From Minisyncoccota bacterium (GTDB lineage Bacteria > Patescibacteriota > Minisyncoccia > Phycocordibacterales > JACRKE01), in assembly GCA_041660505.1 (NCBI GenBank), contig JBAZWG010000001.1, positions 541,776 to 605,775 of the forward strand: 64,000 nucleotides of DNA, in the 5' to 3' direction. Each line of letters begins with the position of its first letter. Position 1 is the first letter of the stretch. Of the stretch, positions 1,490 to 37,730 are shown piece after piece. The translations under genes were made by a program, and so were the position numbers. Under the pieces are notes generated by a model. The model was given only the letters and a program-made list of their open reading frames with translations, ran no database searches and was not told where the DNA came from.

Positions 1490-3538
1490 TTAATGCGCAA
1501 GAATTACGAGCAGTGCTATTAGTGTTATCAGCATGTAAACAATATAGAGGTTGGTGTTGCCGGACTGAATGCGCTTGAACTGGTTGGAAAGTCTCGTGAT
1601 AAAAGATTGAACTGGCGCGTAGAAGTTGTCGAGATAAATATCTTTGAGCTCGAGATGAACGACGCTTTTCTTCGGGAAGTAGCGGAGCTCCGCATCGTGA
1701 TACTCGATGTGTGTCTGGCGTGTCGGGCGGAGCAGACCTTTAAAGATAACGATGAGCGAGCGTGAGAATCCGGTCGCGGTTATCTCCATGCGAGGCAAGA
1801 GTTCCGTCCCGCAGTCCCAAGTGCGATCGCGTCTTAACTTTCGATTTTTTGTTACTAACCCGACAATGATTCCGATGAGTGCGAGCGCAATTACCAGCCC
1901 GACGAAGAGAAGCCCTAGCGACATATTGGCAAAGTTATTGGAAAGATGAACGGCGCTCACGCTAGGCAGAACATTTAGTGTTTCTGCCGACATACCCATG
2001 TTCTGGAGCGCTTGTGCCAAGACAGTAAGGATACCGGTTACCTTGCCGGCAAATACACCGAAGATGAGCGTAAGGGTGGCGAGGAAATACATTCCGACAA
2101 GAAGCGGAGCGGAAGATTCATGAGCATGCTTGGCCTCATCACTGCGAGGGCGAGCGAGGAAGGTGATGCCGAAGGCTTTGACGAAGCAAGCGGCGGCGAG
2201 ACCGGAGGTGAAGGCCAAAGCGCCGATAGCGAGCACGAATATCATTCCCATTGTCGAGCCGAGCGAAGACACTGCGCTGAACATCGCTTGGAAGGTGAGC
2301 CATTCGGAGGCGAAGCCGTTAAGAGGAGGCAAGGCGCTAATGGCCATTGCGCCAATGAGGAAGAGGAAGGCCGTCTGGGGCATATATCGGATGAGCCCGC
2401 CGTACTTCTCGATATTGCGCGTATGTGTTGCGTGGATGACTGAGCCGGCGCCGAGGAAGAGCAGGCCCTTGAACACCGCATGGTTCATAGTGTGGAAGAG
2501 GGCGGCGATGAGGCCGATAAGAGCCAGCGCCTTCATTCCGAAAGAGAGGAATACAAGCGAACTGCCGAGGCCGAGCATGATGATGCCGATGTTCTCGATA
2601 GAGTGATAGGCGAGCAAGCGCTTAAGATCATGTTCGGACAATGCATACAAAACGCCAAGCAAGGCCGAGATCGCACCGAGTATAAGAATCGTGACACCCC
2701 ACCAGACTTGCGCCGGGCCGAGCAAGTCGAAGAAGATGCGGATGAACATATAGATACCGGTCTTAATCATGACGCCGGACATGAGGGCCGAGACGTGCGA
2801 GGGTGCGGCCGGGTGCGCTGAAGGGAGCCAGATATGGAAGGGGATGATACCGGCTTTGGTGCCGAAGCCGATGAGGGCGAGGACGAATATCATATTCTGG
2901 ATCCAGAGCGGTGCCGTCATGAGCGAGAGTTTGATAGTTCCGAAATCCAACGAACCGGTTACCTTGAACATAAGGAGAAAGGCGAGCGTGATGAACGCGG
3001 TGCCCACGTGCGTCATGACGAAGTAGAGCGTACCGGCCTTGATGTTAGCCTGCTCATGGCGCTCGTAAATTACGAGGAAGTATGAGGCGACCGACATTAC
3101 TTCCCAAGCGATAAGGAAGAAAAGAATGTTAGATGATGTAACAACTAAGAGCATTCCGAGTATAAAGCTATTGTAGAAAAAACCGAGCGTCCCCAGATTA
3201 TATTTGCCGATATATTGCTTGGCATACCCATAGCCGTAGACAGATGCGGCGAGCGCAATGAGCGAAATGACGAAGACGAAAAACACCGATAAATGGTCGA
3301 GCGTAAAGGAGAATGTAAGTGCGGGAAAGGTTGAATATCCGGCGAACGAGAAGCCAATGCCTTGCATAAGTAATGAGAGCGAGAAGACAAGAGTCGATAG
3401 TGAGCCGACGATAGAAAATATCGATGACCAAGCATGTGCCGCCTCGTCGTCGTAGCGGAAGATAAGAGAGCCGATAGCGCCGATAGTAAAAAGGCCGAGA
3501 ATAGTGGGGAAGAGTTGTTGGAGGTAAACGGCGGACAT
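1490..3538 (-). CDS. HyfB/HycC/NuoL-like antiporter-type membrane subunit (Mrp/complex I family)
   Basis: 682 aa, about 16 TM helices. Central region ...WLPSAHPAAPSHVSALMSGVMIKTGIY... is typical of the NuoL/MnhA/HyfB proton-pumping family. Start is 3 bp from the stop of the NuoB-like gene. Confidence 0.8.
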   Translation of the reverse strand: MSAVYLQQLFPTILGLFTIGAIGSLIFRYDDEAAHAWSSIFSIVGSLSTLVFSLSLLMQGIGFSFAGYSTFPALTFSFTLDHLSVFFVFVISLIALAASVYGYGYAKQYIGKYNLGTLGFFYNSFILGMLLVVTSSNILFFLIAWEVMSVASYFLVIYERHEQANIKAGTLYFVMTHVGTAFITLAFLLMFKVTGSLDFGTIKLSLMTAPLWIQNMIFVLALIGFGTKAGIIPFHIWLPSAHPAAPSHVSALMSGVMIKTGIYMFIRIFFDLLGPAQVWWGVTILILGAISALLGVLYALSEHDLKRLLAYHSIENIGIIMLGLGSSLVFLSFGMKALALIGLIAALFHTMNHAVFKGLLFLGAGSVIHATHTRNIEKYGGLIRYMPQTAFLFLIGAMAISALPPLNGFASEWLTFQAMFSAVSSLGSTMGMIFVLAIGALAFTSGLAAACFVKAFGITFLARPRSDEAKHAHESSAPLLVGMYFLATLTLIFGVFAGKVTGILTVLAQALQNMGMSAETLNVLPSVSAVHLSNNFANMSLGLLFVGLVIALALIGIIVGLVTKNRKLRRDRTWDCGTELLPRMEITATGFSRSLIVIFKGLLRPTRQTHIEYHDAELRYFPKKSVVHLELKDIYLDNFYAPVQSFITRLSNQFKRIQSGNTNLYIVYMLITLIALLVILAH

Positions 3539-3540
3539 AA

Positions 3541-4101
3541 TTATTTTGACTTAGAAGGTTCAACTTTAGGCACCTTAAAGGTTGAACCTTCTAAGTCGCC
3601 CAAAATTTGAAGCAGTGCCGTCATGATAGTCATGGGTGATGGCGGGTCGCCCGGGATTTCATAATCTACCGGTATGGCACCGCGCGCACCGTCGAGTACG
3701 GCGTAGGAGCCTTTGAATATTCCGCCATTAATAGCGTCATCGCCGACCGCGACAACAATCTTCGGAGTCGGTGTTGCTTCATAAGAATGCATAAGCCCGT
3801 CATACATATTGCGAGAGACCGGGCCTGTCACCATCAGCATATCGGCATGGCGCGGGGAGGCGACGAAGTGAATGCCGAAACGTTCAACGTCATAATAAGG
3901 ATTGCCCAGAGCCACGAGCTCCTGCTCCTCTGCGTTGGTCCCGCCGGCGGTCACGACGCGGATGGCCAAGGAGCCATTAAAGATTTTTTTGACCTTAGCG
4001 CTTAGTTCCGCGCCGGCAGTGTGATATTCAGGAGGTAAGCCCATATCAACCGATTCTATCAGTCTGGGGGTTTTTATGATTTTGGAAATTAAATTAAGCA
4101 T
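3541..4101 (-). CDS. NuoB-like hydrogenase small-subunit homologue lacking all Fe-S ligating cysteines (Ehr-type)
   Basis: 186 aa with NuoB/Oxidored_q6-like spacing (..RHADMLMVTGPVS.., ..AVGDDAINGG.., ..IPGDPPSP..). The protein contains zero Cys. The canonical CCxxE, GxCxxxGG and GCPP positions read GG, D and D. The last ~18 codons overlap a palindromic repeat (copy A1). Confidence 0.7.
   Translation of the reverse strand: MLNLISKIIKTPRLIESVDMGLPPEYHTAGAELSAKVKKIFNGSLAIRVVTAGGTNAEEQELVALGNPYYDVERFGIHFVASPRHADMLMVTGPVSRNMYDGLMHSYEATPTPKIVVAVGDDAINGGIFKGSYAVLDGARGAIPVDYEIPGDPPSPMTIMTALLQILGDLEGSTFKVPKVEPSKSK
3548..3597. repeat. REPIN-like palindromic doublet, family A copy A1 (inside 3' coding end of NuoB-like gene)
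   Basis: gacttagaaggttcaac / 16-nt loop / gttgaaccttctaagtc forms a perfect 17-bp inverted repeat built on the AAGGTTCAACCTT / AAGGTTGAACCTT motif. Confidence 0.75.
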
Positions 4102-4290
4102 GACTACAACAAAGCGTTATCCTACCCCAAACCTATATTTTTTTCAATAGTCTGGTATAATCGTAAACGTGAAATATGCATGGTTAATTCTGGTTATAAT
4201 TGTGGCGCTATTCGCTTTCGGCTTCTGGGTCGCGAGTAAAAGCGGCAGCCGCTTGGCGCCAGACCCGATAAATAACATTGCTGTTATCGG

Positions 4291-4319
4291 TTGACATTCT
4301 GGCCACATCGCGGTACTAT
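4291..4319 (+). promoter_or_regulatory. Sigma-70-like promoter candidate upstream of secE (TTGACA-17nt-TACTAT)
   Basis: TTGACA at 4291..4296, then a 17-nt spacer, then TACTAT at 4314..4319. Confidence 0.4.
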
Positions 4320-4333
4320 ACGGGTACTAAATG

Positions 4334-4352
4334 CCCCGCGGGGCTTTTTTAA
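4334..4352 (+). terminator. GC hairpin CCCCGCGGGG followed by T-run, between the promoter candidate and secE (terminator or leader attenuator)
   Basis: Perfect 10-nt palindrome ccccgcgggg at 4334..4343 followed by cttttttaaaa. It lies about 25 nt upstream of the secE ATG. Confidence 0.35.
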
Positions 4353-4378
4353 AATAAACTATAATTTAGACTATATTT

Positions 4379-4567
4379 ATGAGTAAAGCAGGAGATTATC
4401 TTAAGGACACAGCCGCCGAGATGAAGCATGTGAGCTGGCCGACCCAGTCGCAGTCGATTAACTACACGCTTCTCGTTATTGGCATTTCTGTTTTCGTCGC
4501 ACTCTTCCTCTACGCTTTCGACGAGGTCTTCGTTGTGCTCTTACAGAAATTTATTTTGAAGATCTAA
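4379..4567 (+). CDS. secE: Preprotein translocase subunit SecE
   Basis: 62 aa with a single C-terminal TM helix. Conserved position directly upstream of nusG. Confidence 0.85.
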   Translation: MSKAGDYLKDTAAEMKHVSWPTQSQSINYTLLVIGISVFVALFLYAFDEVFVVLLQKFILKI

Positions 4568-4571
4568 AACC

Positions 4572-5117
4572 ATGGCCAAACAAGAATTACAAGTTGGTCG
4601 CAATTGGTACGCTATCCATACCTACTCCGGGTATGAGAATGCCGTCGTGCGCAACTTGAAACAACGCATTGAGTCGCTCGGAATGGAGAATTTGATTTTC
4701 AACGTATTGGTTCCTAAAGAAAAGAAAGTAAAAGTTCGTGGCGGCAAGCGCGTGGAGTATGAAGACAAGATTTATCCCGGATACGTTTTAGTAGACATGA
4801 TCGTGACGGATGCGTCATGGTATGTAGTCCGCAATACGCCCCGCGTGACCGGCTTCGTCGGCTCGGGCGTCAATCCTATACCTTTGGACAAGAAAGAGGT
4901 TGATGAGCTCTTCCGCCGAATGGGCGAGACGTCTGTCAAACACTCCATCGAGCTCGATGTTGGTGAGACCGTGCGTATTAACGACGGACCGTTCAAAGAC
5001 TTCGAAGGCAAGGTGAGCGAGAAGGATGAGGCCAGGGGCAAGGTCAAGGTGCTCGTCTCGATGTTTGGTCGCGAGACACCCGTGGAGTTAGATTTTCTCC
5101 AAGTAGCGAAGATTTAA
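4572..5117 (+). CDS. nusG: Transcription termination/antitermination factor NusG
   Basis: 181 aa. N-terminal NGN domain (WYAIHTYSGYEN) and C-terminal KOW motif (GETVRINDGPFKDFEGKV). Confidence 0.9.
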   Translation: MAKQELQVGRNWYAIHTYSGYENAVVRNLKQRIESLGMENLIFNVLVPKEKKVKVRGGKRVEYEDKIYPGYVLVDMIVTDASWYVVRNTPRVTGFVGSGVNPIPLDKKEVDELFRRMGETSVKHSIELDVGETVRINDGPFKDFEGKVSEKDEARGKVKVLVSMFGRETPVELDFLQVAKI

Positions 5118-5213
5118 TTATTAACAGAATTTAAGAATTACAGAATTACAGAATAATAAAGCTTCTTTCTATAATTCCCAAATTCCTAAATTCTAAAATT
5201 CTGTTCAAATAAC

Positions 5214-5633
5214 ATGACAAAAGTAGTAAAAACAATTAAATTGCAAATCCCGGCCGGTAAGGCCACCCCGACGCCTCCGGTCGGTCCAGCGCTCGGCCAA
5301 GCCGGTGTTAACATCGGCGAGTTCATCACCAAGTTCAACGCCGCCACGGCCAAAATGGCGGGGGATATCATCCCTGTTATTATCTCGGTCAAGGATGACC
5401 GTTCCTTTAGTTTCGAGCTCAAGACTCCGCCGGCATCAAACCTCCTCCTCAAGGCCGCCGGTGCCGAGAAAGGCTCCGGTACGCCGAACACAAAGAAAGT
5501 CGGCAAGATAACGAAAGCCCAGCTCAAAGAAATTGCTGAGAAGAAGATGCCAGACTTGAATGCAAAAGACTTGGAAGGCGCCATGAACATCATTGCCGGC
5601 ACCGCCCGCAACATGGGAATTGATATCGTATAA
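5214..5633 (+). CDS. rplK: 50S ribosomal protein L11
   Basis: 139 aa. Motif [27 protein letters not shown] is diagnostic of L11. Confidence 0.95.
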
Positions 5634-5677
5634 GGTTTCAAAGGTTCAACCTTATGCATCCAAAAGGTTGAACCTTA
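5632..5677. repeat. REPIN-like palindromic doublet, family A copy A2
   Basis: aaggttcaacctt (5641..5653), 10-nt loop, aaggttgaacctt (5664..5676). The two halves are reverse complements of each other. Confidence 0.75.
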
Positions 5678-5689
5678 AAAAACAAAATT

Positions 5690-6292
5690 ATGTTTCTTTC
5701 AGATCGAGATATTAAAGCCGCAGTGAAGTCTGGCGCTATTCGTATCGATGATTTCGATCCAGAGCGGCTCCAGCCGGTCTCCTACGATATTCTCCTTGGC
5801 AACAAGTTCATCACCACCGAGTCGCAGGACACACCTTTTATCGACCCGGTAAAAAAGATTTTCCCCAGTACGCGCGAGATTACGATTGAGGACAACGAGA
5901 GTTATGTGCTCCATCCTGGCGTGAGTATCCTCGGTACTTCATTCGATTACTTCGGCTCGAAGGAATATCTCATTCAGCTCTCGGGCAAGAGTTCGCTCGC
6001 GCGCATTGGGCTCATTGTCCACAACACCGCGGGCATCATCAACCCGGGCCATTTCTTGCATATTACGCTCGAGTTATGCAATTTGAATGTCGTGCCAATC
6101 GTTCTCCGCCCCAAGATGCATATCGCGCAGTTACTATTCTCGAAAATTTCCAATCCTGTCATTCATGACTACAGCAAGACCGGCCGATACTTCGAGAAGA
6201 ATTGGCAAGGCATCACCCACGCCAAGAACCGGCGCGTGACCGATAAAAAAGTTAATAAAAAGAAGCATGTCAAATTTTCAGATGAAGGTTAA
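5690..6292 (+). CDS. dcd: dCTP deaminase
   Basis: 200 aa. MFLSDRDIK... N-terminus and the SSLARIGLIVHNTAGIINPGH region match the Dcd/dUTPase-like trimeric fold. Overlaps dut by 26 bp. Confidence 0.75.
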   Translation: MFLSDRDIKAAVKSGAIRIDDFDPERLQPVSYDILLGNKFITTESQDTPFIDPVKKIFPSTREITIEDNESYVLHPGVSILGTSFDYFGSKEYLIQLSGKSSLARIGLIVHNTAGIINPGHFLHITLELCNLNVVPIVLRPKMHIAQLLFSKISNPVIHDYSKTGRYFEKNWQGITHAKNRRVTDKKVNKKKHVKFSDEG

Positions 6293-6698
6293 GAGGCTCA
6301 ATCCTAAGGCGATACTGCCGGATTATAAGCACGATGGGGATGCCGGTCTCAATCTATATTCGATCGTTCGGGCCAAACTCGAGCCCGGTGCGCGCGCAAC
6401 AGTCCCGACAGGTATCGCAACAGAAATACCGGCAGGACATGTGGGCCTGATTTGGGACAGAAGCGGTCTGTCGCACAAATCGGGGCTTAAGGTTATGGGC
6501 GGGGTGATTGATGCGGGATACCGCGGTGAAATCGGCGTAGGGCTGGTAAACACTTCTCATGAAGCTTATACAATCGAAGCGGGAGACAAGATAGCTCAGA
6601 TGCTTATTCAAGAAGTCGAGCACGTTCTTATTTCAGAAGTCGCAGAACTTTCCGACACGTCTCGCGGTTCAGCCGGCTTCGGCAGTACGGGGCGCTGA
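6267..6698 (+). CDS. dut: dUTP diphosphatase (dUTPase)
   Basis: 143 aa. dUTPase motifs GLIWDRSGL, GVIDAGYRGE, and the C-terminal SRGSAGFGSTG. Confidence 0.9.
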   Translation: MSNFQMKVKRLNPKAILPDYKHDGDAGLNLYSIVRAKLEPGARATVPTGIATEIPAGHVGLIWDRSGLSHKSGLKVMGGVIDAGYRGEIGVGLVNTSHEAYTIEAGDKIAQMLIQEVEHVLISEVAELSDTSRGSAGFGSTGR

Positions 6699-6722
6699 AG
6701 AAATAGTCCAGTGCAATTCAAT

Positions 6723-6760
6723 TATTCCAAAACTCTGCTATCGCGTGATTCTGGAATAGA
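6723..6760. repeat. 36-nt repeat copy a flanking the PaaX-like regulator gene
   Basis: ttattccaaaactctgctatcgcgtgattctggaata. A second copy lies at 7342..7380. Confidence 0.6.
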
Positions 6761-6778
6761 AAAGATAATTCAAGTTTT

Positions 6779-7339
6779 TTATTTCAAACCGAATTTTTCT
6801 TTGAGCTTATTGTCTGGTTGAATGCGGGATTCGAGCAGATAGACATATTCAGAAATTTCGTGGTAGTTCAGAACGAAGTTCACCTCTTCTTCGCAGGGGT
6901 AGGGGAATACAAAAACGCTTTTCTGGAATTCTTTGAAACCGAGTTTTTTGAGTTTGGTACGCAAGGCATCTCGTGCCGGTTTGAGCGGCTCGGGAATGTC
7001 GAAGAGAACCATGCGCCATTTTTTGTCCCACTTCTTTTCTTGATTCAAGGTTAGCGCGTTGTACATTCGTTTCAGGCGATAACTGGCACCATCGCGCGTC
7101 ATCGCCATTTTATATGAATCCTTACCCTTCACAACTTCGACGTAGCCGCGTAGTTTCAGTTTGTCTAATGTCGCAAACAGCACCTTGCGGTTCATTTCGA
7201 ACCAAACTTTGTCACAATGCTCATGAATTGCGCGTCGCCGAGTTTTCCCGCGTGTGAAAATAAGAACAGTCTGCGAGGCCAGAAGATCAAGAATCTGCGT
7301 CGCGAGGATTTCTCGTTTTGTCATATCGTAATAATACAC
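6779..7339 (-). CDS. PaaX-family-like transcriptional regulator (N-terminal wHTH, C-terminal PaaX_C/Cas2-like domain)
   Basis: 186 aa. C-terminal block WDKKWRMVLFDIPEPLKPARDALRTKLKKLGFKEFQKSVFVFPYP matches the PaaX C-terminal signature. Sits inside the thyA-tmk cluster. Confidence 0.5.
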   Translation of the reverse strand: MYYYDMTKREILATQILDLLASQTVLIFTRGKTRRRAIHEHCDKVWFEMNRKVLFATLDKLKLRGYVEVVKGKDSYKMAMTRDGASYRLKRMYNALTLNQEKKWDKKWRMVLFDIPEPLKPARDALRTKLKKLGFKEFQKSVFVFPYPCEEEVNFVLNYHEISEYVYLLESRIQPDNKLKEKFGLK

Positions 7340-7341
7340 TA

Positions 7342-7380
7342 TTCCAAAACTCCGCGATAGCGTGATTTTGGGATAATCGC
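7342..7380. repeat. 36-nt repeat copy b flanking the PaaX-like regulator gene
   Basis: ctattccaaaactccgcgatagcgtgattttgggata. Flanks are direct relative to copy a. The central 9-mer (cgcgatagc) is the reverse complement of the 9-mer in copy a (gctatcgcg). Confidence 0.6.
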
Positions 7381-7393
7381 GAAAAAGAAATTC

Positions 7394-8323
7394 TTATACT
7401 GCAATCGGGGCTTTGATCGGTGGGTGGGGGTCGTAGCCTATGACTTCGACATCTTCGAATTTGAAATCGAAGATGTCTTTGACGGCGGGATTAATTTTCA
7501 TCGTCGGGAGCTTGCGCGGTTCGCGGGAGAGTTGTTCTTCTACTTGGGCAAAATGATTTTTATAAATATGGACATCGCCAAAGGTGTGGATGAACTCGCC
7601 CGGCTGCAGTCCGGCCACTTGCGCCATCATCATGGTAAAGAGGGAATAGGACGCGACATTAAAGGGTACACCCAGAAAGACGTCGGCCGAGCGCTGGTAG
7701 AGCTGGCAAGAGAGTTTGCCGTTAATGACCATAAAATGAAAGAGCGTGTGACAAGGTGGTGGGGCAGAGTGGTGCGCCTTGACTAAGCTCTCGATCTCGC
7801 CGATGTTCCAGCCGGAGACAATGAGTCGGCGCGAAGTCGGGTCGTTCTTTATCAAATCCAAAACAAGTTTGACTTGATTGATGCTCCTGCCGTCCTTCGT
7901 CTCCCAGTTGACCCACTGCTTACCGTAGATTGGGCCAAGCTCGCCGTATTTCTTGGCAAACTCGTCATCATTCACTATTTTCTCAACGAACTCCGCCATA
8001 TGATTGGTCCAACTCTCTGAATAGCGCGGATATTTTTCTTCCAGATTATTTTTCTTCAAATAGTCGGCATAGGCCCATTCGTTCCAAATCTTCACGCCAT
8101 TCTTTGCGAGATACTGAATATTAGTGTCTCCCCGCAAGAACCAGAGAAGTTCGTAAATTATCGATTTTAAATAAACTTTCTTGGTCGTGAGCAGAGGGAA
8201 GCCGTCGGCCAAATTCACTCTATATTGATAACCGAAGAGGCTGCGTGTGCCGACGCCGGTGCGATCCGCCTTATCGGTACCATCATCGCGAATCTTCTTG
8301 AGCAAGTCTAAATATTGCCGCAT
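7394..8323 (-). CDS. thyA: Thymidylate synthase ThyA
   Basis: 309 aa. Active-site region [41 protein letters not shown]. Confidence 0.9.
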
Positions 8324-9545: not shown

Positions 9546-9884
9546 TTACAGCCTGCGAAGGGCGCGGTTGAGGCTTTTCATTGCCTCGACGAGCTCTTTC
9601 GAGAGGCGGTACTCTTTTGCCGCCTGGTACTGCTTGATCGGGACATCCAGCGCCGTTGCGATGTCCTCGACCGTAGTCAAACCTTTCGCCTTGTGGGCGT
9701 ACCGAGTTGCTTCGAAGGCGATGTCCTCGCCGGCGACGCGGAGTTTGACGAGCTCGTCCCGGGCTGCGAGCATCTGCTTGAAGGTGCCGAGGTCGTTGTT
9801 CTTTGTCCCCGGCCCAGCAGCGCCGCTTTCGCAGGAGTACACGAAGTCCTTGACGGACTCCTTGAGAATCTTTGTGTCGAACAA
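9546..9884 (-). CDS. Hypothetical protein, paralogue 2 of a tandem pair in a high-GC island
   Basis: 112 aa. Shares the block ..LRVAGEDIAFEATRYAHKAKGL..EDIATAL..QYQAA..ELVEAMKSLNRAL with the upstream ORF. GC content is clearly higher than in surrounding genes. Confidence 0.5.
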   Translation of the reverse strand: MFDTKILKESVKDFVYSCESGAAGPGTKNNDLGTFKQMLAARDELVKLRVAGEDIAFEATRYAHKAKGLTTVEDIATALDVPIKQYQAAKEYRLSKELVEAMKSLNRALRRL

Positions 9885-10336: not shown

Positions 10337-13300
10337 ATGGAATCAACTAAATCTGACGTCGCCAAGCGCGAGGAAGAGATACTGCAGTTTTGGCAAGAGG
10401 ATAAAACCTTTGAAAAGTCTTTAAAGAAGAAGTCGCCTAAGGGTAACTACGTTTTTTACGATGGCCCGCCTTTTGCCACCGGCACACCGCACTATGGGCA
10501 TATTTTAGGAAGCACAGCTAAAGATGTTATCGGGCGGTATAAGACTATGCAAGGCTACCATGTGCCGAGGCGTTGGGGCTGGGATTGCCATGGTCTGCCT
10601 ATTGAGAATATCGTCGAGAAAGATTTGAAGATTTCCGGCCGTAAGGCTATTGAAGAATACGGTATTGAGAAATTTACGGAGTATGCTCGCAGTAAAGTAT
10701 TGACCTACGTGCACGAATGGAAGAAGACAATCGATCGTATCGGACGCTGGGTGGACTTCGACAATTCCTACAAGACGATGGATAACAGCTTTATCGAGTC
10801 TGTCTGGTGGGCCTTGGGCGAACTGAATAAAAAAGGTTTGATCTATGAAGGTGTTCGCGTCTTGGCGTACTGCCCGCGCTGTGAGACGCCGATTGCCAAC
10901 TCCGAGATCGCAATGGACAATAGTTATAAAGACATCACTGATATCTCTGTCTACGCAAAGTTTGAACTAAAGGATGAGCCAAAAACATATTTCTTAGCGT
11001 GGACAACAACACCGTGGACGTTGCCGGGCAACATCGCACTCGCGGTCAATCCGGAGGTGGCTTATGTAAAAATTAAGCACGAGGGACAGTATTTGATACT
11101 CGCGAAGGAACGTCTGGTGAATACGATGAAAGATAAGCCCTATGAATTAATCGAAGAGTTTGAGGGCAAAACTTTTATAGGGAAAAAATATACGCCACTG
11201 TTCGATTATTATACACACACAAAAGGCATTGCCGATAATGAGAAGTCGTGGACGGTGCGCGGGGCGGAATTTGTGACCACGACCGATGGCACAGGAATAG
11301 TACATATCGCGCCAGCCTTCGGCGAGGACGATATGAATATGGCGAAGGCAGAAGGTTTGCCCTGGATCATCCATGTGACGCCGACCGGTAAATTTACCGA
11401 CGAGGTCACTCATTTTGCGGGCCAGCAAGTAAAACCCAAAGAGAATCATCAAGCCGCCGATGTCGAGATAATTAAGTATCTTGCGCATAATCATCTGCTG
11501 TTTGAAAAAGAAAAAATCATTCACTCTTACCCGCATTGCTATCGCTGTGAGACGCCTCTTTACTATTACGCGTTGCCGTCGTGGTTCGTTAATATCCAGA
11601 AAGAAAAATCTCACATTCTGAGTCGTGCTGAAGAGATGGCCTGGATACCTGCGCACCTGAAAGAGGGGAGGTTCAAGGGTGGCGTCGAGAGTGCGCCAGA
11701 TTGGACGATATCACGCAACCGTTACTGGGCATCGCCTTTGCCGATCTGGAAATCGAAGTCGGGAAAGGTTATGTTCGTAAACTCTCTCGAAGATTTAAAA
11801 AATAAGACAAAAAAGTCCGGGAATACGTACCACGTGATGCGCCACGGCGAGGCGGAAAATAATGTAAAAAAAATAGTCAGTTACGCTGACCAGAAAAATT
11901 CGCACCTCACGCCTAAGGGTAAAGAAGAGACTATGAGTACAGCAAAGACTGTTGCCGTAAATAAAATTACAAAAATCTTTTGTTCACCATTCACACGTAC
12001 GCTCGAGACTGCTTACATCGTGGCAGACGAGCTAGGAATTTCGCGAGACAACATCGTCACCGATGTTCGTCTCTGGGAACTAAACGCAGGGACATTCGAC
12101 GGTAAAAAATGGGCAGAGTGGGAAGTGTGGGCAAAATCACAGGAAAATTATTATAACGCAAGACCCGAAGGTGGCGAGAGCCATTTCGACGCTAAGAAAC
12201 GTTTCGGAGATTTTATCTACGATATCGATAGCCAGTTTCATAATGAAAGTATTCTTGTTGTAACGCACGGCATTGGGCTCGAGGTACTACCGGCAGTCGT
12301 CGAATGCGCCGACGGTGTGCGGTCTAAGCAGATTTACGAAAACACAAGTGAAAAAACAGGGGCAATGATTGAATTAGAATTCACTCCGCTTCCGCACACT
12401 GCCAACTATGAGCTTGATTTTCACCGGCCTTATATTGATGCGATAAAATTGGTTGATGAAGCAGGGGAAGAGTACACAAGAATTACAGAAGTCATTGACT
12501 GTTGGTTCGAGTCCGGCTCGATGCCATTCGCGCAAGACCATTATCCATTCGAACGCAAGAATTGGCAGAAAGAGAATTTTCCCGCAGGGTTCGTGGCAGA
12601 ATATATCGCCCAGACACGCACATGGTTCTATTATACGCACGCGCTTTCTACTATCTTCTTCGACCACGCACCATTCCAGAATGTCATCACGACCGGTAAT
12701 ATTTTGGCCGAGGATGGCCAGAAGATGAGTAAGTCGAAAGGGAACTTTCCTGATCCGGCTCTGCTCTTCGACAAATACAGTGTCGACGCATTGCGCCTCT
12801 ACTTGATGTCCAGCACGCTCATGAAGGGCGAGGATATGAACTTCTTCGAAAAAGGCGTAGATGAAGTAAATAAAAAGGTGATAATGCGCCTCGGTAATGT
12901 GTTGTCTTTTTATAAACTGTATTCTGACTTTAGCTCTAACTCCCAACTCCTAACTCCCAACTCCTCCCATGTGTTAGATCAATGGATGTTTTCTAGACTT
13001 GGTCAGCTTGTGACAGAAGTTACCACGTATATGGAATTATACGAGCTTGATAAGGCGACGCGACCACTCTTCGACTTCGTTGATGATTTATCGACATGGT
13101 ATCTGCGCCGTTCGCGCGACAGGTTTAAATCCGATGATGTTGAAGATAGGGAGGCCGCATTGCAAACTACTCGCTACGTATTAGAAACTACGGCAAAACT
13201 TGTCGCGCCACTTATGCCGTTCATCGCAGAATATATATATAAAGAGTTAGGGAACAGTGAGAGTGTGCACCTCGCCGATTGGCCAGGAATGGGAGATGGG

Positions 13301-13768
13301 AGTTTGGAGATAGGAGATAGGGTAATTCAAGATATGGTTCTGGTGCGGAAAGTAGCTTCACTTGGTCTCGAAGCGCGAGCAAAAGAAAAGATTGCGGTCC
13401 GTCAGCCATTAGCGAAGCTCGAGTTGAAAGATGCGACACTTGAGGGGAAGACGGAATTACTCGAACTGATTAAAGATGAAGTCAATGTAAAACAGATCTT
13501 GTTCAATAAAGAGCTGGAATCGGAAGTGAAGCTCGACACCGTGCTTACCGATGAGCTCAAACAGGAAGGCGAACTCCGCGAGCTGATGCGCGCTGTCCAA
13601 GATTTGCGAAAAACTAAAGGGCTTGAGCCGGGGCAAGTAATACGCCTGACTTTGTCAAAATCATATGAAACTCTCGCAAAAAAGTTCGAGACCGAACTCA
13701 AGAAAGGCGTTCGGGCAGAAAAGATAGTTGTGGCTGAAACGGCAGAAATGTCGCTCGAAGTAGTCTAG
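10337..13768 (+). CDS. ileS: Isoleucyl-tRNA synthetase with an inserted histidine-phosphatase (PGAM-like) domain
   Basis: 1143 aa. HIGH motif PHYGHIL, KMSKS motif QKMSKSKGN, editing-domain motifs and CYRCETPL all present. An inserted ~195 aa region (nt ~11819..12407) carries RHGEAENN, LTPKG, SPFTRTLETA, ELNAGTFDG and VVTHG, the hallmarks of histidine phosphatases. Confidence 0.9.
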   Translation: MESTKSDVAKREEEILQFWQEDKTFEKSLKKKSPKGNYVFYDGPPFATGTPHYGHILGSTAKDVIGRYKTMQGYHVPRRWGWDCHGLPIENIVEKDLKISGRKAIEEYGIEKFTEYARSKVLTYVHEWKKTIDRIGRWVDFDNSYKTMDNSFIESVWWALGELNKKGLIYEGVRVLAYCPRCETPIANSEIAMDNSYKDITDISVYAKFELKDEPKTYFLAWTTTPWTLPGNIALAVNPEVAYVKIKHEGQYLILAKERLVNTMKDKPYELIEEFEGKTFIGKKYTPLFDYYTHTKGIADNEKSWTVRGAEFVTTTDGTGIVHIAPAFGEDDMNMAKAEGLPWIIHVTPTGKFTDEVTHFAGQQVKPKENHQAADVEIIKYLAHNHLLFEKEKIIHSYPHCYRCETPLYYYALPSWFVNIQKEKSHILSRAEEMAWIPAHLKEGRFKGGVESAPDWTISRNRYWASPLPIWKSKSGKVMFVNSLEDLKNKTKKSGNTYHVMRHGEAENNVKKIVSYADQKNSHLTPKGKEETMSTAKTVAVNKITKIFCSPFTRTLETAYIVADELGISRDNIVTDVRLWELNAGTFDGKKWAEWEVWAKSQENYYNARPEGGESHFDAKKRFGDFIYDIDSQFHNESILVVTHGIGLEVLPAVVECADGVRSKQIYENTSEKTGAMIELEFTPLPHTANYELDFHRPYIDAIKLVDEAGEEYTRITEVIDCWFESGSMPFAQDHYPFERKNWQKENFPAGFVAEYIAQTRTWFYYTHALSTIFFDHAPFQNVITTGNILAEDGQKMSKSKGNFPDPALLFDKYSVDALRLYLMSSTLMKGEDMNFFEKGVDEVNKKVIMRLGNVLSFYKLYSDFSSNSQLLTPNSSHVLDQWMFSRLGQLVTEVTTYMELYELDKATRPLFDFVDDLSTWYLRRSRDRFKSDDVEDREAALQTTRYVLETTAKLVAPLMPFIAEYIYKELGNSESVHLADWPGMGDGSLEIGDRVIQDMVLVRKVASLGLEARAKEKIAVRQPLAKLELKDATLEGKTELLELIKDEVNVKQILFNKELESEVKLDTVLTDELKQEGELRELMRAVQDLRKTKGLEPGQVIRLTLSKSYETLAKKFETELKKGVRAEKIVVAETAEMSLEVV

Positions 13769-16288: not shown

Positions 16289-16314
16289 TCTAACAGAATT
16301 AAAGAATTTAGGAA

Positions 16315-17724
16315 TTGACGATTATGACTGATACAAATATGGATGATATTATTTCGTTCGCGAAGCGCAAAGGTTTTGTCTATCCCGGCTCGGAAATTTA
16401 CGGCGGAGCAGCCGGCTTGTATGACTTCGGGCCGTACGGCGTCGAACTTTTAAATAATCTAAAGGCGTCATGGTGGAAGGAGAATGTGCAAAAGAAAGAG
16501 AACTACTTCGGCCTCGACTCGGCGATGTTCAAAGACCCTCGTGTCTGGGAGGCGTCTGGCCACGTCGGCGGGTTTTCCGACCCTTTGACCGAATGCAAGA
16601 AGTGCAACACGCGTCTGCGCGTAGACAAAGAGCTTGCCAAAATCGGTGTGTCTGCCGATGAGAAAATGTCCGAGGCCGAATTGAACGCGCTTTTTGACGA
16701 ACATAAGAAAAAAATCAAGTGTCCCAAGTGTGGCGGACAAGACTTCTCGCCAGTGCGCGCCTTCAATCTGCTCGTGAAGTCGAACTTGGGGGATTTTACC
16801 AATACCGGCGAGCATCCGGTGTATCTTCCAGGCGAAGCCTGCCAGGGTATTTATTTGAATTACAAAAATATTCTAGATACAGTGCGCGCCAAAGTACCCT
16901 TTGGCATCGCGCAAATCGGCAAAGCATTCCGCAACGAGATATCGCCGCGCAACTTCCTCTTCCGCACGCGCGAGTTCGAGCAGGCCGACACGCAGTATTT
17001 CATCCGACCAAACGAGAATAAGGCAGATTATGAAAGAATCAAACAAGAACGCTGGAGTTGGTACTTGAGTTTAGGTATTCCGGCAGAACAGCTGCGCTGG
17101 AAGCAGCACGAACGCCTGGTCTTCTATGCCAAAGATGCTTGGGATATTGAATACAACTTCCCATCATACGGCTTCGACGAAGTCGAGGGTATTCATGACC
17201 GTACCGATTATGACTTGACCCAGCATATGAAGTTCTCCGGCGTTGACCTCTCGTATCTCGATCCAGAAACGAACGAGAAATATATTCCGTGGATACTGGA
17301 GACGTCGATGGGGATGGGCCGGCTCTTTCTCGCTGTCCTTTCAGAAGCTTATACAGAAGATGAACTTGGGGGCGAGAAGCGCACATTGCTTAAACTCAAG
17401 CCGAGTTTGGCGCCTATTAAAGTTGCAGTCTTTCCTTTGCTTCGCAACAAGCCGGAACTGGTCGCCAAAGCGCGCGAAGTCTTTATGATGCTTAAGCAAG
17501 AATTCCGCACCGAGTGGGACGACAACGGCAATATCGGCAAGCGTTATCGCCGGCAAGATGAGATCGGCACGCCGTGGTGCGTCACAGTAGACTTCGATAC
17601 GCTCGGCGAAACCCCCGAGAATAAAGACACCGTAACAGTTAGAGACCGCGACACGGGCAAACAAGAAAGAATGAAAATCAGCGAACTTGCGTCGCATATA
17701 CAAAAGAGTATACTTTCGACATGA
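16315..17724 (+). CDS. glyQS: Glycyl-tRNA synthetase (alpha2 dimeric class II type)
   Basis: 469 aa. N-terminus FAKRKGFVYPGSEIYGGAAGLYDFGPYG, class II motifs, C-terminal anticodon-binding domain. Confidence 0.9.
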   Translation: MTIMTDTNMDDIISFAKRKGFVYPGSEIYGGAAGLYDFGPYGVELLNNLKASWWKENVQKKENYFGLDSAMFKDPRVWEASGHVGGFSDPLTECKKCNTRLRVDKELAKIGVSADEKMSEAELNALFDEHKKKIKCPKCGGQDFSPVRAFNLLVKSNLGDFTNTGEHPVYLPGEACQGIYLNYKNILDTVRAKVPFGIAQIGKAFRNEISPRNFLFRTREFEQADTQYFIRPNENKADYERIKQERWSWYLSLGIPAEQLRWKQHERLVFYAKDAWDIEYNFPSYGFDEVEGIHDRTDYDLTQHMKFSGVDLSYLDPETNEKYIPWILETSMGMGRLFLAVLSEAYTEDELGGEKRTLLKLKPSLAPIKVAVFPLLRNKPELVAKAREVFMMLKQEFRTEWDDNGNIGKRYRRQDEIGTPWCVTVDFDTLGETPENKDTVTVRDRDTGKQERMKISELASHIQKSILST

Positions 17725-18004: not shown

Positions 18005-19717
18005 ATGGAAACTAAGTCCTGCCAGAATTGCAAAGAAAATTTCGTCATCGAACCGGAAGATTTCGTTTTTTACGAAAAAATCAAAGTCCCCCCGCCGACT
18101 TTCTGTCCGGAGTGCCGTATGATCAGGCGATTCCTCTGGAGGAACGAGAGAACACTATATAAGCGTAAGTGTGATTTGTGTAGTAAAGACATAATTGCTA
18201 TGTATTCGGCAGATTCCGATTTTACAGTGTATTGTTCCGACTGCTGGTACTCCGACCAATGGGACCCAATGGAATACGGCAGCGATTATGATTTTTCCGT
18301 GCCATTTTTTTCTCAATTCGGGCTGTTGGTAAAGAAAGTTCCTCGGATAGCACTTGAGGGATATCAAAATTTAAATTCTCCATTCACTAATTACACATGG
18401 TTTTCGAAAGATGTTTATTTGTCTGCTTCCACGTTGTATTCGGAGAATGTTTTTAACTCCCAGGCAACATCTAACGGAGCAGATATATTCGATTGTGATA
18501 ATACTTCGAGATCTAATACTTGTCTTGATGTTGTGACGGCCGATAAATGTTCTCGCTGTTATTCTTGCATACAAGTTCAAGAAAGTCTGGATTCTCGTTT
18601 CCTTTACGATTGCAAAAATTGTACGAGTTGTATGTTAAGTCACAACCTGAGACACAAATCATACGTCCTAAGAAATAAACAGCTTACGAAAGAAGAGTAT
18701 GAAAAAGAAAAGCCTGATATAGGGAGTTTTAAAATTCAGTGCGAATGCGAGGCAGAATTTGCCCACCTGCGAAGCGGAGCGGTAACCAGATTCGCCTCTG
18801 TGACAAAGTCAGAAAATACCACCGGCGACTACATTACTAATTCCAAGAATATTTATCGTTCATTCGGTGTTGATAACGCCGAGAATATACGCTATGGATC
18901 CCGTGCCACATATATTAAAGATAGTATGGATGTCCACGGCGTCGGAAGCAGCGATGGGGCAGTTGAGTTATTGTATGAATTCATTAACGGCGGATACAAA
19001 GATTCACGAATGTTTTTTTCAGCAAATTCGTATGAAGGAATGCTGAACGCGTACTACTGTGATTATTGCAGAGGGTCAGAAAACGTATTCGGTTGTGTCG
19101 GTTTAAAAAAGAAGCAATATTGCATTCTTAATAAACAGTATTTAAAAGAGGAATATTTAGAGTTGGTGTCGAAAATAATCGAACACATGAACAAGATGCC
19201 ATACGTAGATGCTAGCGGCATCGAATATAAATACGGAGAATTTTTTCCATCGGAAATTGCACCATTTACCTATAACGAAAGTTTAGCACAAGAATATTTT
19301 CCGATAAGGCAAGATGTTGCCGAGACGGCTGGATATCGCTGGCGCAAACAAGAAGAAAAAAGTTATAGGATTACCATTTTGTCCAGTGCTCTGCCAGACC
19401 ACATCAACGACACCCCTGATTCTATCTTAAAAGAGGTTATAGGATGTGAACATCGTGCAGAATGTTCTGAACAGTGTACTGGTGCGTATAAAATAACACC
19501 GGCAGAATTGAATTTTCATCGCGCCAACGGAGTTGCCCTGTCTCGTTTATGTATGAACTGTCGGCATTCCGCTCAATTTAAAAAGAGAACACCAATGCAG
19601 TTATGGCATAGACATTGTATGAAAAAGGGTTGCCCAAACGAATTCGAAACCTCCTACGCCCCAGATCGCCCCGAGATCATCTATTGCGAGTCTTGCTATC
19701 AGCAGGAAGTCGTGTAG
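18005..19717 (+). CDS. Cysteine-rich multi-zinc-ribbon protein, paralogue A
   Basis: 570 aa, about 40 Cys mostly as CxxC pairs. N-terminus CQNCKENFVIEPEDFVFYEKIKVPPPTFCPECR. C-terminal tail YAPDRPEIIYCESCYQQEVV is shared with the 20365..22062 product. Confidence 0.7.
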   Translation: METKSCQNCKENFVIEPEDFVFYEKIKVPPPTFCPECRMIRRFLWRNERTLYKRKCDLCSKDIIAMYSADSDFTVYCSDCWYSDQWDPMEYGSDYDFSVPFFSQFGLLVKKVPRIALEGYQNLNSPFTNYTWFSKDVYLSASTLYSENVFNSQATSNGADIFDCDNTSRSNTCLDVVTADKCSRCYSCIQVQESLDSRFLYDCKNCTSCMLSHNLRHKSYVLRNKQLTKEEYEKEKPDIGSFKIQCECEAEFAHLRSGAVTRFASVTKSENTTGDYITNSKNIYRSFGVDNAENIRYGSRATYIKDSMDVHGVGSSDGAVELLYEFINGGYKDSRMFFSANSYEGMLNAYYCDYCRGSENVFGCVGLKKKQYCILNKQYLKEEYLELVSKIIEHMNKMPYVDASGIEYKYGEFFPSEIAPFTYNESLAQEYFPIRQDVAETAGYRWRKQEEKSYRITILSSALPDHINDTPDSILKEVIGCEHRAECSEQCTGAYKITPAELNFHRANGVALSRLCMNCRHSAQFKKRTPMQLWHRHCMKKGCPNEFETSYAPDRPEIIYCESCYQQEVV

Positions 19718-20052: not shown

Positions 20053-20368
20053 GTTGTATCTCGGGCACATTCTTGATGCGATTACCAAGCTCGAGAAATA
20101 TGCGGGATTGACTTCGCGGACTGATTTGGAGACAAACGATCTTGTGTATGACGCCATAGTTCGCGAAATAGAAATTTTAGGTGAGGCAACGAAACACCTG
20201 ACGGACGACTTCCGTTGTCTGGAACAGGGAATTCCCTGGAATCTGATTATTGCAACCAGAAACAAGCTTATACACGAGTATTCCGAAGTTGATCTTGATT
20301 CTATCTGGAAAACTATCCAAGAAGATTTACCTAAGCTCAAAGCGGTGGTCAATAAGTATTTGAATTGA
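20018..20368 (+). CDS. hepT: HepT-type HEPN toxin (DUF86)
   Basis: 116 aa. HEPN Rx4-6H motif RNKLIHEY. Overlaps mntA as usual for this toxin-antitoxin pair. The alternative in-frame ATG at 20036 may be the true start. Confidence 0.8.
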   Translation: MTSRFSMDSENKLYLGHILDAITKLEKYAGLTSRTDLETNDLVYDAIVREIEILGEATKHLTDDFRCLEQGIPWNLIIATRNKLIHEYSEVDLDSIWKTIQEDLPKLKAVVNKYLN

Positions 20369-22062
20369 TGGAAACCAGAACTTGCCAAAACTGTAAGCAA
20401 AATTTCGTCATCGAACCGGAAGATTTTGAGTTTTACGAAAAAATAAAAGTCCCTCCGCCGACCTTCTGTCCGGAATGCAGAAATATCCAGCGTCTTGCGA
20501 CACGCAATATGAAGTCTTTGTATCGGCGCGCCTGCGACAAATGCGGAGAGAATGTTGTTTCTCGATTTTCTTCGTCCAACCGCGCAAGAATGTTTTGTCA
20601 TAAATGCTGGTGGGCAGAAGACTGGGACGGCATTTCATTCGGTAAGGATTACGACTTTTCGCGCCCATTTTTCGAACAGTTCAATGAATTACTTTTTAAC
20701 GTTCCTCATGTTTCTATTCTTAATTCAAACATGGTTGAGAGCGATTATTCCAACATGGAAACAGATTGCAAAAAATGCTATCTGACTTTCGGCGGCCACT
20801 ATAACGAAAATTGCGCCTTTACTGTCTACAGTTTGTATGGGAAGGAAGTTTACGATTCGTACTGGTCCCTTCACTGTGAACAATGTTTAGGCAACACGAG
20901 TGTTAATCATTGTTACCGTACGTTTTTTTCGGAACAATGCGGAAATTGTATCGACACCTTTGTCTCACGCGACTGCCGCGGGTGCACAAATATCATAGGC
21001 TGTGCAGGTTTGCGCAATAAGCAATATTGCATTTACAACAGACAATTCAGCAAAGACGACTATCTGAAAGAAAAGTCCAGGCTCAATTTCGGATCCCATG
21101 CAGAGCTCGAGAGTATCATCAGTAAGTCGCATGAAGTTTGGCTGAAGACGCCTCATCAATATGCAGCAATGATTAAGACAGTAAACTGCTCCGGCAACGA
21201 TATTTTTAACTCTAAAAATGTCATTAACGGATGGAACGTAGAAGAGAGCGAGAATTGCAAGAACGCATATATAGCAGCCTCGATAAAAGATTGCTATGAC
21301 GAAACCTCCGTAGGCAATGACGAGCTTGGCTACATGAATGCGAACGGCGGGGGATTATATAACTGTAAAGCAACGCTATACTCCTTTTCCAGCGACCCGA
21401 TGAATCGAAAAAGCGGATTTAATTGCGAATACTCCTATTCGCTTGTTAATTGCAATGACTGCTTCGGTTGTGCCGGTTTGCGCGGCAAGCGATACTGTAT
21501 TCTTAATAAACAGTACACAGAGGCCGAATACAAAAATTTATTGCCGAAAGTAATCGAACATATGAGGAAGGCACCTTTTGTATCTTCTGCCAACCGATAC
21601 ATTTATTCGTATGGCGATTTTTTCCCGGCAGAGCACTCGCTTTTTGCATATAACGAATCAGCCGCCCAAGATTTTTACCCGACACAAGGCGATAAGGCGC
21701 TAATGGCCGGATTTAATTGGCGAGAAGAACCGCCGACAGAATACAAGTTTACCGACTATATAATTCCGGATGATATTAGGGATGTTAAAGACGATATTTT
21801 AAATGCCGTGTTAAAGTGCGAGAAAAGTGGCAAGGCATATCGAATCATAAAGCAAGAACTCGAATTTTACAGAAGCATTGGACTGCCAATACCACGAATC
21901 GCCCCGCTCGAAAGAATAAATCAAAGAATTAATAATTTACTGCCGTTCAAACTTTGGGAGAGAACCTGCGGTAAATGCTCCAAACCCATTCAGACACCGT
22001 ACGCTCCCGACCGGCCGGAGATCGTCTATTGCGAGTCTTGCTACCAGCAGGAAGTAGTGTAA
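20365..22062 (+). CDS. Cysteine-rich multi-zinc-ribbon protein, paralogue B
   Basis: 565 aa, homologous over its full length to the 18005..19717 product. The first ~110 nt and last ~40 nt are ~85-90% identical at the DNA level. The interior is conserved only at the level of Cys spacing. Confidence 0.7.
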   Translation: MMETRTCQNCKQNFVIEPEDFEFYEKIKVPPPTFCPECRNIQRLATRNMKSLYRRACDKCGENVVSRFSSSNRARMFCHKCWWAEDWDGISFGKDYDFSRPFFEQFNELLFNVPHVSILNSNMVESDYSNMETDCKKCYLTFGGHYNENCAFTVYSLYGKEVYDSYWSLHCEQCLGNTSVNHCYRTFFSEQCGNCIDTFVSRDCRGCTNIIGCAGLRNKQYCIYNRQFSKDDYLKEKSRLNFGSHAELESIISKSHEVWLKTPHQYAAMIKTVNCSGNDIFNSKNVINGWNVEESENCKNAYIAASIKDCYDETSVGNDELGYMNANGGGLYNCKATLYSFSSDPMNRKSGFNCEYSYSLVNCNDCFGCAGLRGKRYCILNKQYTEAEYKNLLPKVIEHMRKAPFVSSANRYIYSYGDFFPAEHSLFAYNESAAQDFYPTQGDKALMAGFNWREEPPTEYKFTDYIIPDDIRDVKDDILNAVLKCEKSGKAYRIIKQELEFYRSIGLPIPRIAPLERINQRINNLLPFKLWERTCGKCSKPIQTPYAPDRPEIVYCESCYQQEVV

Positions 22063-24557: not shown

Positions 24558-25492
24558 TGTCGCTCAAGCTCGTAGATATTCATACCCACCCGCAATTCGC
24601 GGCTTATACGGAAGACCGTGACGCTATTATGCAACGTGCCGAAGAGGCAGCGGTGGGGCAGATCGTTGTGGGGACGCAAAAGGACACTTCACAGGCCGCC
24701 ATAGATCTTGCGCATAAATATCCGCATACTTGGGCAACGGTCGGTCTGCACCCGATACACACCACCAAGTCTTATCATGACGCATATGAACTAGAAAATT
24801 CCAACCTCACCCCTGCACCCCTCTCCGACGGAGAGGGGAAACTCTCGGAAAATTCCCCCTCCCTTTCGGGGAGGGGGTTAGGGGGTGAGGTGGTGAAGCC
24901 CTTCACTTCTCGCGGAGAGGTTTTCGATTATGACTATTACAGAAAATTGGCTACAGACGAGAAGGTGGTCGCTATTGGTGAATGCGGCTTGGATTATTTC
25001 AGACTCGATGAAGACACCAAACAGATACAGATGAATGTCTTCGATGCACAGATTGCGCTGGCGAACGAAGTGGAGAAGCCTATTATGCTTCATATTCGTG
25101 CGGGCAAGCATGCCGGCAGTGGCACGGCCTATCAAGACGCTTTCCATATGCTGCACTCAAAATCAAAAGTTTCGGCCAACGTGCATTTCTTTGCCGGCGA
25201 TATCGAAACTGCTAAAAGATTTTTGTCTATAGGCTGCACGCTATCATTCACCGGCGTCATTACTTTTACCCACGACTATGACGAAGTGGTAAAGTATGTG
25301 CCGATAGAGTCTATGATGGTCGAAACCGACGCGCCTTACATTACGCCAGCGCCATATCGGGGCAAACGCAACGAATCTTCTTATGCCAGGCTTATCGCTG
25401 CCAGGGTTGCCCTCATAAAAGGTATAAGCATAGAACAGGCAGAAGCCAAGCTCCTAGATAACGCCATACGACAGTTCAGGTTGAAATTTTAG
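24558..25492 (+). CDS. tatD: TatD-family metal-dependent hydrolase with an in-frame palindromic-element insertion
   Basis: Start chosen as ATG 24558 (MSLKLVDIHTHPQF), directly after the metG stop. TatD motifs present. The ~28-aa insert LTPAPLSDGEGKLSENSPSLSGRGLGGEVVKP is encoded by GC-rich repeat copy G1. Confidence 0.8.
24806..24890. repeat. GC-rich palindromic element, family G copy G1 (in-frame inside tatD)
   Basis: tcacccctgcacccctctccgacggagagggg ... ccccctccctttcggggagggggttagggggtgagg. Nested inverted repeats. Shares the cacccctg.cccctc.ccgaaggagaggg core with copies at 37731, 44076 and 63570. Confidence 0.7.
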
Positions 25493-26501: not shown

Positions 26502-26531
26502 CAGAATTAAAGAATTATAGAATTAAAGAAT

Positions 26532-28644: not shown

Positions 28645-28652
28645 ACGCCCAG

Positions 28653-28688: not shown

Positions 28689-28695
28689 AAGGTGA

Positions 28696-37727: not shown

Positions 37728-37730
37728 TTT

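Follow-up and report, generated by a model that had tools for sequence, protein, structure and literature searches.

A palindromic repeat family dispersed through Patescibacteria has probably extended the coding tail of a NuoB-like gene

Rickettsia palindromic elements (RPE-1 to RPE-10; Ogata et al. 2000, 2002, as summarised in PMC10969869) are about 100 to 150 bp long, and each family codes for one conserved peptide. Repetitive extragenic palindromic (REP) sequences lie, by definition, outside genes and bear a GTAG or CGTC tag (PMC3733652), and ERIC, BOX, Correia and the cyanobacterial elements are bacterial MITEs (miniature transposable elements with inverted repeats) that create in-frame fusions (review PMC10969869). 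Palindrome A1, described here, lies at the 3' end of a NuoB-like gene in a 64-kb stretch of a Minisyncoccota genome (assembly GCA_041660505.1, contig JBAZWG010000001.1, positions 541,776 to 605,775), which is referred to throughout as the window. A1 belongs to a hairpin family that is RPE-like in manner, yet is a member of neither the RPEs nor the REPs. It is likely that A1 is a copy of this family that entered the NuoB-like tail in frame and is read through to the ancestral stop codon. The locus is organized as follows.

3541-4101, minus strand: NuoB-like (Oxidored_q6) gene, 186 codons plus stop (open reading frame [ORF] list; Pfam PF01058, E 4e-22)
3548-3597: palindrome A1, with arms at 3548-3564 and 3581-3597 that form a perfect 17-bp stem around a 16-nt loop (3565-3580)
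3553-3592: family core of A1 by covariance model R1, with 2 + 13 nt arms and the loop (39.9 bits, E 2e-10)
3598-3606: imperfect outer extension of A1, in which CAAAAT (3601-3606) pairs with ATTTTG (3543-3548) across a CGCC bulge
3536-3543, minus strand: stop/start junction, with TAA at 3543-3541, 2 nt, and ATG at 3538-3536 of the NuoL/HyfB-like gene
1490-3538, minus strand: downstream NuoL/HyfB-like antiporter-type subunit gene (Pfam PF00361, E 4e-61)

The two A1 arms (plus strand, GACTTAGAAGGTTCAAC on the left and GTTGAACCTTCTAAGTC on the right) are exact reverse complements, with a stem G+C content of 40%. Read on the minus strand, the palindrome codes for D169 (3597-3595) to S185 (3549-3547), and the protein end reads ...ILG D169 L E G S T F K V P K V E P S K S185 K186, followed by the stop. 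The first-pass annotation had placed the last ~18 codons of the ORF within the palindrome and the stop codon at its edge, and both points hold, with codons 169 to 185 in the element and 4 nt separating the TAA from the perfect palindrome. The outer extension is weak and copy-specific, as judged from the sequence and a minimum-energy DNA fold, and the outer 7 pairs of the stem (GACTTAG / CTAAGTC) are also particular to A1. The inner part is not: it was recognised by R1, which was trained on 100 copies, all from other genomes and none from the window, and it differs from the family consensus by a single C to T change in the plus-strand 5' arm, which on the mRNA strand falls in the other arm as a synonymous AAG to AAA (Lys) change. 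The A1 17-mer has three occurrences at up to 3 mismatches, with 0.23 expected (pattern search), and the loop, AGGCACC, is of a type shared with other window copies and with L005, L018, L036, L048, and L135. The region folds strongly both as RNA (-30.2 kcal/mol, z -5.5) and as DNA (-19.3 kcal/mol, z -5.8), and none of 200 shuffles is as good in either case. A1 is not an assembly artefact, because Logan contig L126, from a separate assembly, matches window positions 2157 to 7706 at 100% identity, A1 included. An intrinsic terminator was considered for A1 and rejected, as there is no U-tract (the 3' sequence is AAAAUAAUUAUG on the mRNA strand and GCCCAAAAU on the other).

The tail copy is specific to this lineage. 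The three closest orthologues, at 84 to 86% identity, have tails that differ in length and sequence (P0002 in L247, ..ILSDIEAKKK and stop; P0003 in L001, ..ILGDIEEKGLTPRQNNNHGKLHSSLK and stop, 35 residues; P0004 in L005, ..ILNTIESKDNLGKK and stop), and an R1 search found no recognisable family copy in the tails of L001/L002, L005, and L247. Among 114 homologues the tail following the DPPSP motif is 17 to 27 residues long (median 22), and the exceptions are the window protein (30 residues, the third longest), P0003 (35), and P0014 (44). The long P0003 tail was tried as a decayed copy (AGAAGGGTCTAACC.. / ..AAAGTTACACTCTTCT) and rejected, with an R1 score of 0.2 bits and a fold that does not surpass shuffled sequence (z 0.04). 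Sites occupied by the family also turn over among close relatives, as L005 carries a copy with the same loop type elsewhere (1469-1508, 8 nt upstream of the nuoB-like ATG) while its tail is free of one, and no family copy was found in 12 kb of syntenic DNA of L001, including the rplK-dcd spacer.

The stop codon and part of the coding sequence appear older than the element. An AAA-TAA-NN-ATG-TC junction is common to the window, L001, and L005, and thus to two of the three closest relatives, so that the TAA stop is ancestral, as is the coupling to the next gene, and the A1 element did not supply the stop. The protein can be aligned with HycG up to window residue 172 (..LLQILGDLEG versus ..FAMALGLLEQ), and more distant homologues read ..DLDGS.. 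at the position of the window DLEG. By this alignment the first four palindrome codons (DLEG) are probably ancestral, and the net gain is therefore about 12 to 13 codons, not 18. The proposal that the element had inserted into, or been recruited as, the 3' end of the gene is thus sustained as regards a lineage-specific tail copy, but has to be amended as regards the stop and the size of the gain. The nearest relatives found, at up to 86% identity, do not place the insertion boundaries of the tail copy to the single nucleotide.

A1 is one of many copies. The family core consists of 13-nt arms, AAGGTTCRACCTT and AAGGTYGAACCTT, around a loop of 6 to 17 nt, giving a core of 32 to 43 nt. A genome scan with the full arms, using one genome per GTDB species, returned at least 120 loci, and among the matches listed nearly all are in Patescibacteria metagenome-assembled genomes (MAGs). 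The named groups are Kaiser-, Taylor-, Moran-, Yanofsky-, Nomura-, Wolfe-, Zambryski-, and Wildermuthbacteria, Paceibacterota, and Minisyncoccia, together with two Microgenomates/Levybacteria and many bins with generic labels. Eight loci among the matches listed carry labels from outside the candidate phyla radiation (CPR); of the bins behind them at least one has the wrong label, since it encodes a protein with 72% identity to a Moraniibacteriota MAG protein. With a looser metagenome pattern (GGTTCRACY..RGTYGAACC) about one third of the matches listed have full arms, and many are unrelated hairpins; a scan of 2.9 million viral contigs gave zero family matches. Copy density is about one per 10 to 30 kb, with several copies per MAG. 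L111, a 4.2-kb metagenome contig, is far denser than elsewhere, with at least six copies (at 117, 282, 2010, 2352, and 2924, and a weak one at 705).

The position of the hairpins relative to genes was evaluated with 128 copies drawn from the listed scan loci in other genomes. Seventy-five (59%) are fully inside ORFs, and for 65 of them the ORF has 150 residues or more and strictly encloses the hairpin; 84% of random 38-mers would be expected to fall inside an ORF, and the hairpins are therefore depleted from coding DNA (p 2e-15). Essential genes of the ordinary kind serve as hosts of the in-ORF copies: LeuRS, IleRS, ValRS, PheT, UvrA, UvrC, GatB, and TsaE, and also genes for a radical SAM enzyme, a P-type ATPase, and an O-antigen-ligase-like protein. 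On both sides of the in-ORF hairpins the Pfam domains run on, and orthologues without the hairpin have clean gaps, mostly of 11 to 14 residues, exactly at the hairpin. UvrA, for example, reads ISALEKGSTLPMARLNLSEK where the gapped orthologue has FVDTIE-----------LSEM, and the gaps span 12 to 13 residues in GatB, 13 to 15 in ValRS, and 14 in the radical SAM protein (72% identity). In-ORF copies are read in all three phases (45, 34, and 11 copies), with first-arm peptides of the forms xGST[LF].., xRF[DN]L.. or KV[RQ]P.. and second-arm peptides KVEP, RSNL, RLNL or GRTL; the frame reading GGT TGA was not seen among them. Relatives of the A1 peptide EGSTFKVPKVEPS occur in the unrelated proteins UvrC (EGSTFRILKVEPS), PheT (EGSTFGEPKVEPS), and TsaE (KGSTFKIPKVEPL), and the loop types are recognisable and found in both orientations.

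Orthologous loops of the proteins GatB (L049, L107, and L092) and UvrC (L066, L246, L215, and L167) contain copies that are read in differing phases from genome to genome, with other orthologues empty, and this could reflect either repeated entry at a permissive loop or old copies reshaped by indels. The IleRS of the window (10337-13768, 1143 residues) has a histidine-phosphatase domain (His_Phos_1, residues 500-651) inside the catalytic domain, and the IleRS proteins of L135 and L230 share this architecture and have, at about residue 292, a hairpin-family insert that is lacking in the window protein.

The conserved property of the family is pairing as well as sequence. At the variable arm position the 128 copies have G-C in 85, A-T in 40, and a mismatch in 3. 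Among 24 copies outside the search-pattern selection, the six window copies included, 17 pairs are double-changed and complementary, 13 are broken, and 7 are G-T, counts that lean towards pairing as R1 favours paired copies. L149 and L199 have the same site and loop and differ by one compensatory C to T / G to A change. Arm complementarity is kept by compensatory changes. At least two extra, copy-specific outer pairs are present in 57 of the 128 copies (8 expected), and the flank consensus is cc, AAGG...CCTT, gg, with the outer dinucleotides beyond the boundary; the flanks are complementary to each other and contain no direct repeat. Single orphan arms are rare, with 36 found versus 316 arms in pairs.

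R1 identified exactly six significant sites in the window. Repeat finding had joined 3555-3590 (A1) with four other sites, and the sixth was spotted by eye. The five other than A1 are listed below.

5639-5678: family copy in the rplK-dcd spacer, with the rplK stop at 5633 and the dcd ATG at 5690 (R1 47.7 bits; Pfam)
28650-28689: family copy, G-C arm variant, between a hypothetical gene and the convergent recA 3' end (R1 38.2 bits; Pfam)
48332-48371: family copy in the 23S rRNA gene, at the helix 45 tip (R1 48 bits)
52973-53015: family copy, G-C variant with a 13-nt loop, 8 nt past the ftsW/rodA stop (R1 33.5 bits; Pfam)
58776-58815: decayed family copy in the glyA-folD spacer, ending 8 nt before the folD ATG (R1 17 bits, E 0.006; Pfam)

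A1 is the sole window copy in a protein-coding frame, and the four intergenic copies are each 6 to 12 nt from a stop or start codon. The 23S copy is part of a 65-nt insertion (~48318-48385) that has its own outer stem (CTTCATTTTTGC / GCAAAAATGAAG) and is placed between positions 1218 and 1219 of the Rfam large-subunit rRNA model, inside the closing stem. Intervening sequences, which RNase III excises from the mature rRNA, are present at helix 45 of 23S rRNA in Salmonella, Campylobacter, Leptospira, and others, and the helix 45 tip, where the window copy is located, is their classical position. At the sequence level, the copy at 48332-48371 and its surrounding 65-nt hairpin resemble these in forming an extended hairpin in place of the tip of helix 45 (helix 25 being the other such location); to our knowledge, reported intervening sequences have not been described as sharing a core with repeats of protein-coding genes. 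L031, a Patescibacteria contig, has a long hairpin insertion at the same 23S place (~9740-9830) with a diverged core, AAAGGTCTGACTTT..AAAGTAAGACTTT. The window 23S gene (46994-50798) is ~3.8 kb versus a 2.9-kb model, and contains two group I introns at 49184-49460 and 50275-50495 (Rfam RF00028, 58.6 and 56.4 bits), as well as a further 56-nt insertion near model position 228.

Comparison with the described elements was by their reported features. The likeness to RPEs suggested in the first-pass annotation is borne out by the finding of the same element in frame in many Patescibacteria housekeeping genes: both are palindromic repeats with stable hairpins in a small genome, both occur in frame in unrelated housekeeping genes and between genes, and both add a peptide missing from orthologues. 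However, the Patescibacteria element is much shorter (a core of 32 to 43 nt, with 50 nt for the A1 palindrome, versus 100 to 150 bp), uses three phases to code for different peptides (xGSTL.., xRFDL.., KVRP..) in contrast to the one conserved RPE peptide in one frame, has a conserved stem beside a variable loop, and occurs across many lineages of Patescibacteria where the RPEs belong to a single genus. REP and REPIN elements, which are mobilised by RAYT (Y1) transposases, are similar in size (20 to 40 nt) and are also imperfect hairpins in many copies, often just after or between genes, and both they and the present family are possible targets or sources of local rearrangement. A short, imperfect, multicopy palindrome is what is seen here (six in 64 kb), but A1 is coding, as are the 75 in-ORF hairpins noted above, and a GTAG or CGTC tag is present within 10 nt of the hairpin foot in 1 of 158 copies; REP identity was therefore rejected, on the absent tag and the intragenic majority. 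MITEs are likewise small non-autonomous repeats that at times extend or interrupt ORFs, and they show target-site duplications and a variable interior enclosed by conserved terminal inverted repeats. In the present family it is the centre that is conserved, with the arms abutting the loop; its outer pairs differ from copy to copy, and its flanks are not direct repeats. Neither the arm sequences nor the topics of coding palindromes and of miniature or palindromic elements in Patescibacteria/CPR led to a description of the family in the literature searched, a coverage that mostly excludes subscription journals, and the family is provisionally regarded as new to the literature.

The favoured account of A1 is that, in the lineage of this genome, a family copy became lodged downstream of the conserved domain, which closes with ..ILGDLEG, and upstream of the final Lys codon. 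The extra nucleotides would have been a multiple of three without an in-frame stop, such that the ORF reads on to the ancestral TAA and the NuoB-like protein would gain about 12 to 13 residues (..STFKVPKVEPSKS..). Insertion, or templated copying of another family member, may have brought the copy in, and a dispensable tail together with arms nearly devoid of stops in all frames would explain why it persists; what is recognised in spread may be the hairpin form, as single-stranded DNA or RNA. On a broader interpretation, to which we give roughly even chances, the family consists of frame-agnostic coding palindromes that enter enzyme surface loops, spacers, and 23S helix 45, the arms being held by a conserved hairpin-recognising enzyme across many candidate phyla, and the NuoB-like tail would be one such event.

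Several observations weigh against these interpretations. The P0003 tail is longer still without a recognisable copy, so tail length varies without the element too. The ancestral-looking arm GAC TTA GAA GG codes for DLEG, and some of the palindrome may therefore have been in place beforehand, or be the flank copied in inverted orientation, and not imported. No empty site was seen at the nucleotide level among the available relatives, all of which are at 86% identity or below, and we infer translation of the tail copy from its reading frame only. For the copies in ORFs, the lengths of the core or the core plus outer stem are not enriched for multiples of three; three insertion units were tried (the core with neither, one or both of its outer arms), under none of which is the length a multiple of three, and the palindrome by itself is therefore not the inserted unit. 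In the 64-kb window, the genes of which were scanned in part, no gene for a transposase or another mobilising function was identified. Finally, the non-coding share of the family is 41% versus 16% expected, a ~2.6-fold enrichment that would also fit a gene-boundary function.

That enrichment also favours the rival possibility that the A1 hairpin is kept as an intercistronic RNA element, either as a message stabiliser, as a processing site, or by masking the NuoL-like start for coupled translation, with the added residues a by-product. The stem is strong (-30 kcal/mol) and stops 9 nt short of the next ATG, four of the five other window copies are similarly close to a stop or start codon, and pairing is maintained by compensatory changes. 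Yet L001, L005, and L247 keep the gene pair without a copy at the junction, family copies are located in rRNA and deep in essential ORFs, with the loop in either orientation and in every reading phase, and the A1 stem lacks a following U-tract, and we regard a retained RNA function as unlikely. It is very improbable that the palindrome instead arose in place, by a template switch or inverted duplication of the ancestral GAC TTA GAA GG, with its family likeness secondary. The ancestral appearance of DLEG and the seven outer pairs particular to A1 are in keeping with such an origin, and the excess of copies with at least two outer pairs suggests that flanks are often made complementary; but the 13-nt arms and loop type fit R1, the training copies of which all come from other genomes, at E 2e-10, and local duplication leaves the shared inner arm and loop unexplained and accounts for the outer 7 pairs at most.

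DNA uptake sequences (DUS) and uptake signal sequences (USS) occur both inside and outside genes, and at far higher density than this family. The family arms could be recognition sequences of this kind, accumulated via biased recombination with inverted pairs favoured, and the conservation of the arm sequence in many Patescibacteria lineages and the occurrence of copies within and outside genes are both compatible with this. However, the copies are extra DNA relative to orthologues and not recoded codons, orphan arms are rare compared with paired ones, compensatory pairing would be needless for a linear recognition word, and one copy per 10 to 30 kb is far under the density of DUS and USS, making an uptake role extremely improbable. 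Entry of a family copy into the NuoB-like tail is the preferred explanation of A1.

The NuoB-like gene is within a group-4-hydrogenase/complex-I-like operon with NuoL-, NuoH-, and NuoCD-like genes, and the order of the NuoB-like and NuoL/HyfB-like genes is the same in relatives; the latter is probably translationally coupled to the former. Homologues of the NuoB-like protein are abundant, and it matches HycG (7z0s_G) at E 3e-26. All four cysteine ligands of the [4Fe-4S] cluster are substituted, with TAGGTNAEE, GDDAINGG, and PGDPP where HycG has CGGCNGCE, GACGNSGG, and PGCPP (alignment with HycG/MbhJ). In 24 aligned homologues Cys is replaced in the second and third motifs, and many retain a single Cys in the first (..TNACEQE..), which is absent from the window protein and its closest relatives. 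These substitutions suggest that the operon encodes a module unable to carry this cluster. An AlphaFold model of the protein (24-sequence alignment) has a mean predicted local distance difference test score (pLDDT) of 46, which is too poor to judge the tail.

Other features of the window are also of interest. rplK is directly followed by dcd and not by rplA (5214-6292), and this order fits a Parcubacteria subgroup that has been reported to be without uL1, and often without the anti-Shine-Dalgarno motif (PMC9297842). A second, G+C-rich palindromic family (..CCCCTCCCCGAAGGAGAGGGG..), unrelated to the A1 family, is present at four sites or more, some as paired hairpins (24807-24876, 37728-37823, 44078-44112, and 63571-63608). 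An A+T-rich motif with 8-nt periodicity (TTAACAGAATTAAAGAATTAcAGAATt) is located in spacers at 5113-5163, 16290-16324, 26490-26532, 57298-57332, and 62533-62568, with several sites just upstream of genes (rplK, glyA), and could be a promoter or leader motif. Two tandem paralogous genes (18005-19717 and 20365-22062) code for ~570 residues each and have DNA stretches that are 74 to 85% identical.

Coding palindromes have so far been treated as a peculiarity of Rickettsia, and the family described here would be a second, unrelated system in bacteria with tiny genomes and a dependence on hosts, one that is shorter, is read in any frame, and has one arm sequence across many lineages. If this is correct, it would account for many small lineage-specific inserts in Patescibacteria proteins and for at least some short rRNA insertions, would provide a marker of recent genome change in organisms that cannot be cultivated, and would point to a hairpin-recognising activity conserved across Patescibacteria lineages. 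For annotation of these genomes, C-terminal extensions and internal inserts of 11 to 14 residues with GSTL, RFDL, KVEP, RSNL, or GRTL would then be taken as repeat-derived and not as functional motifs.
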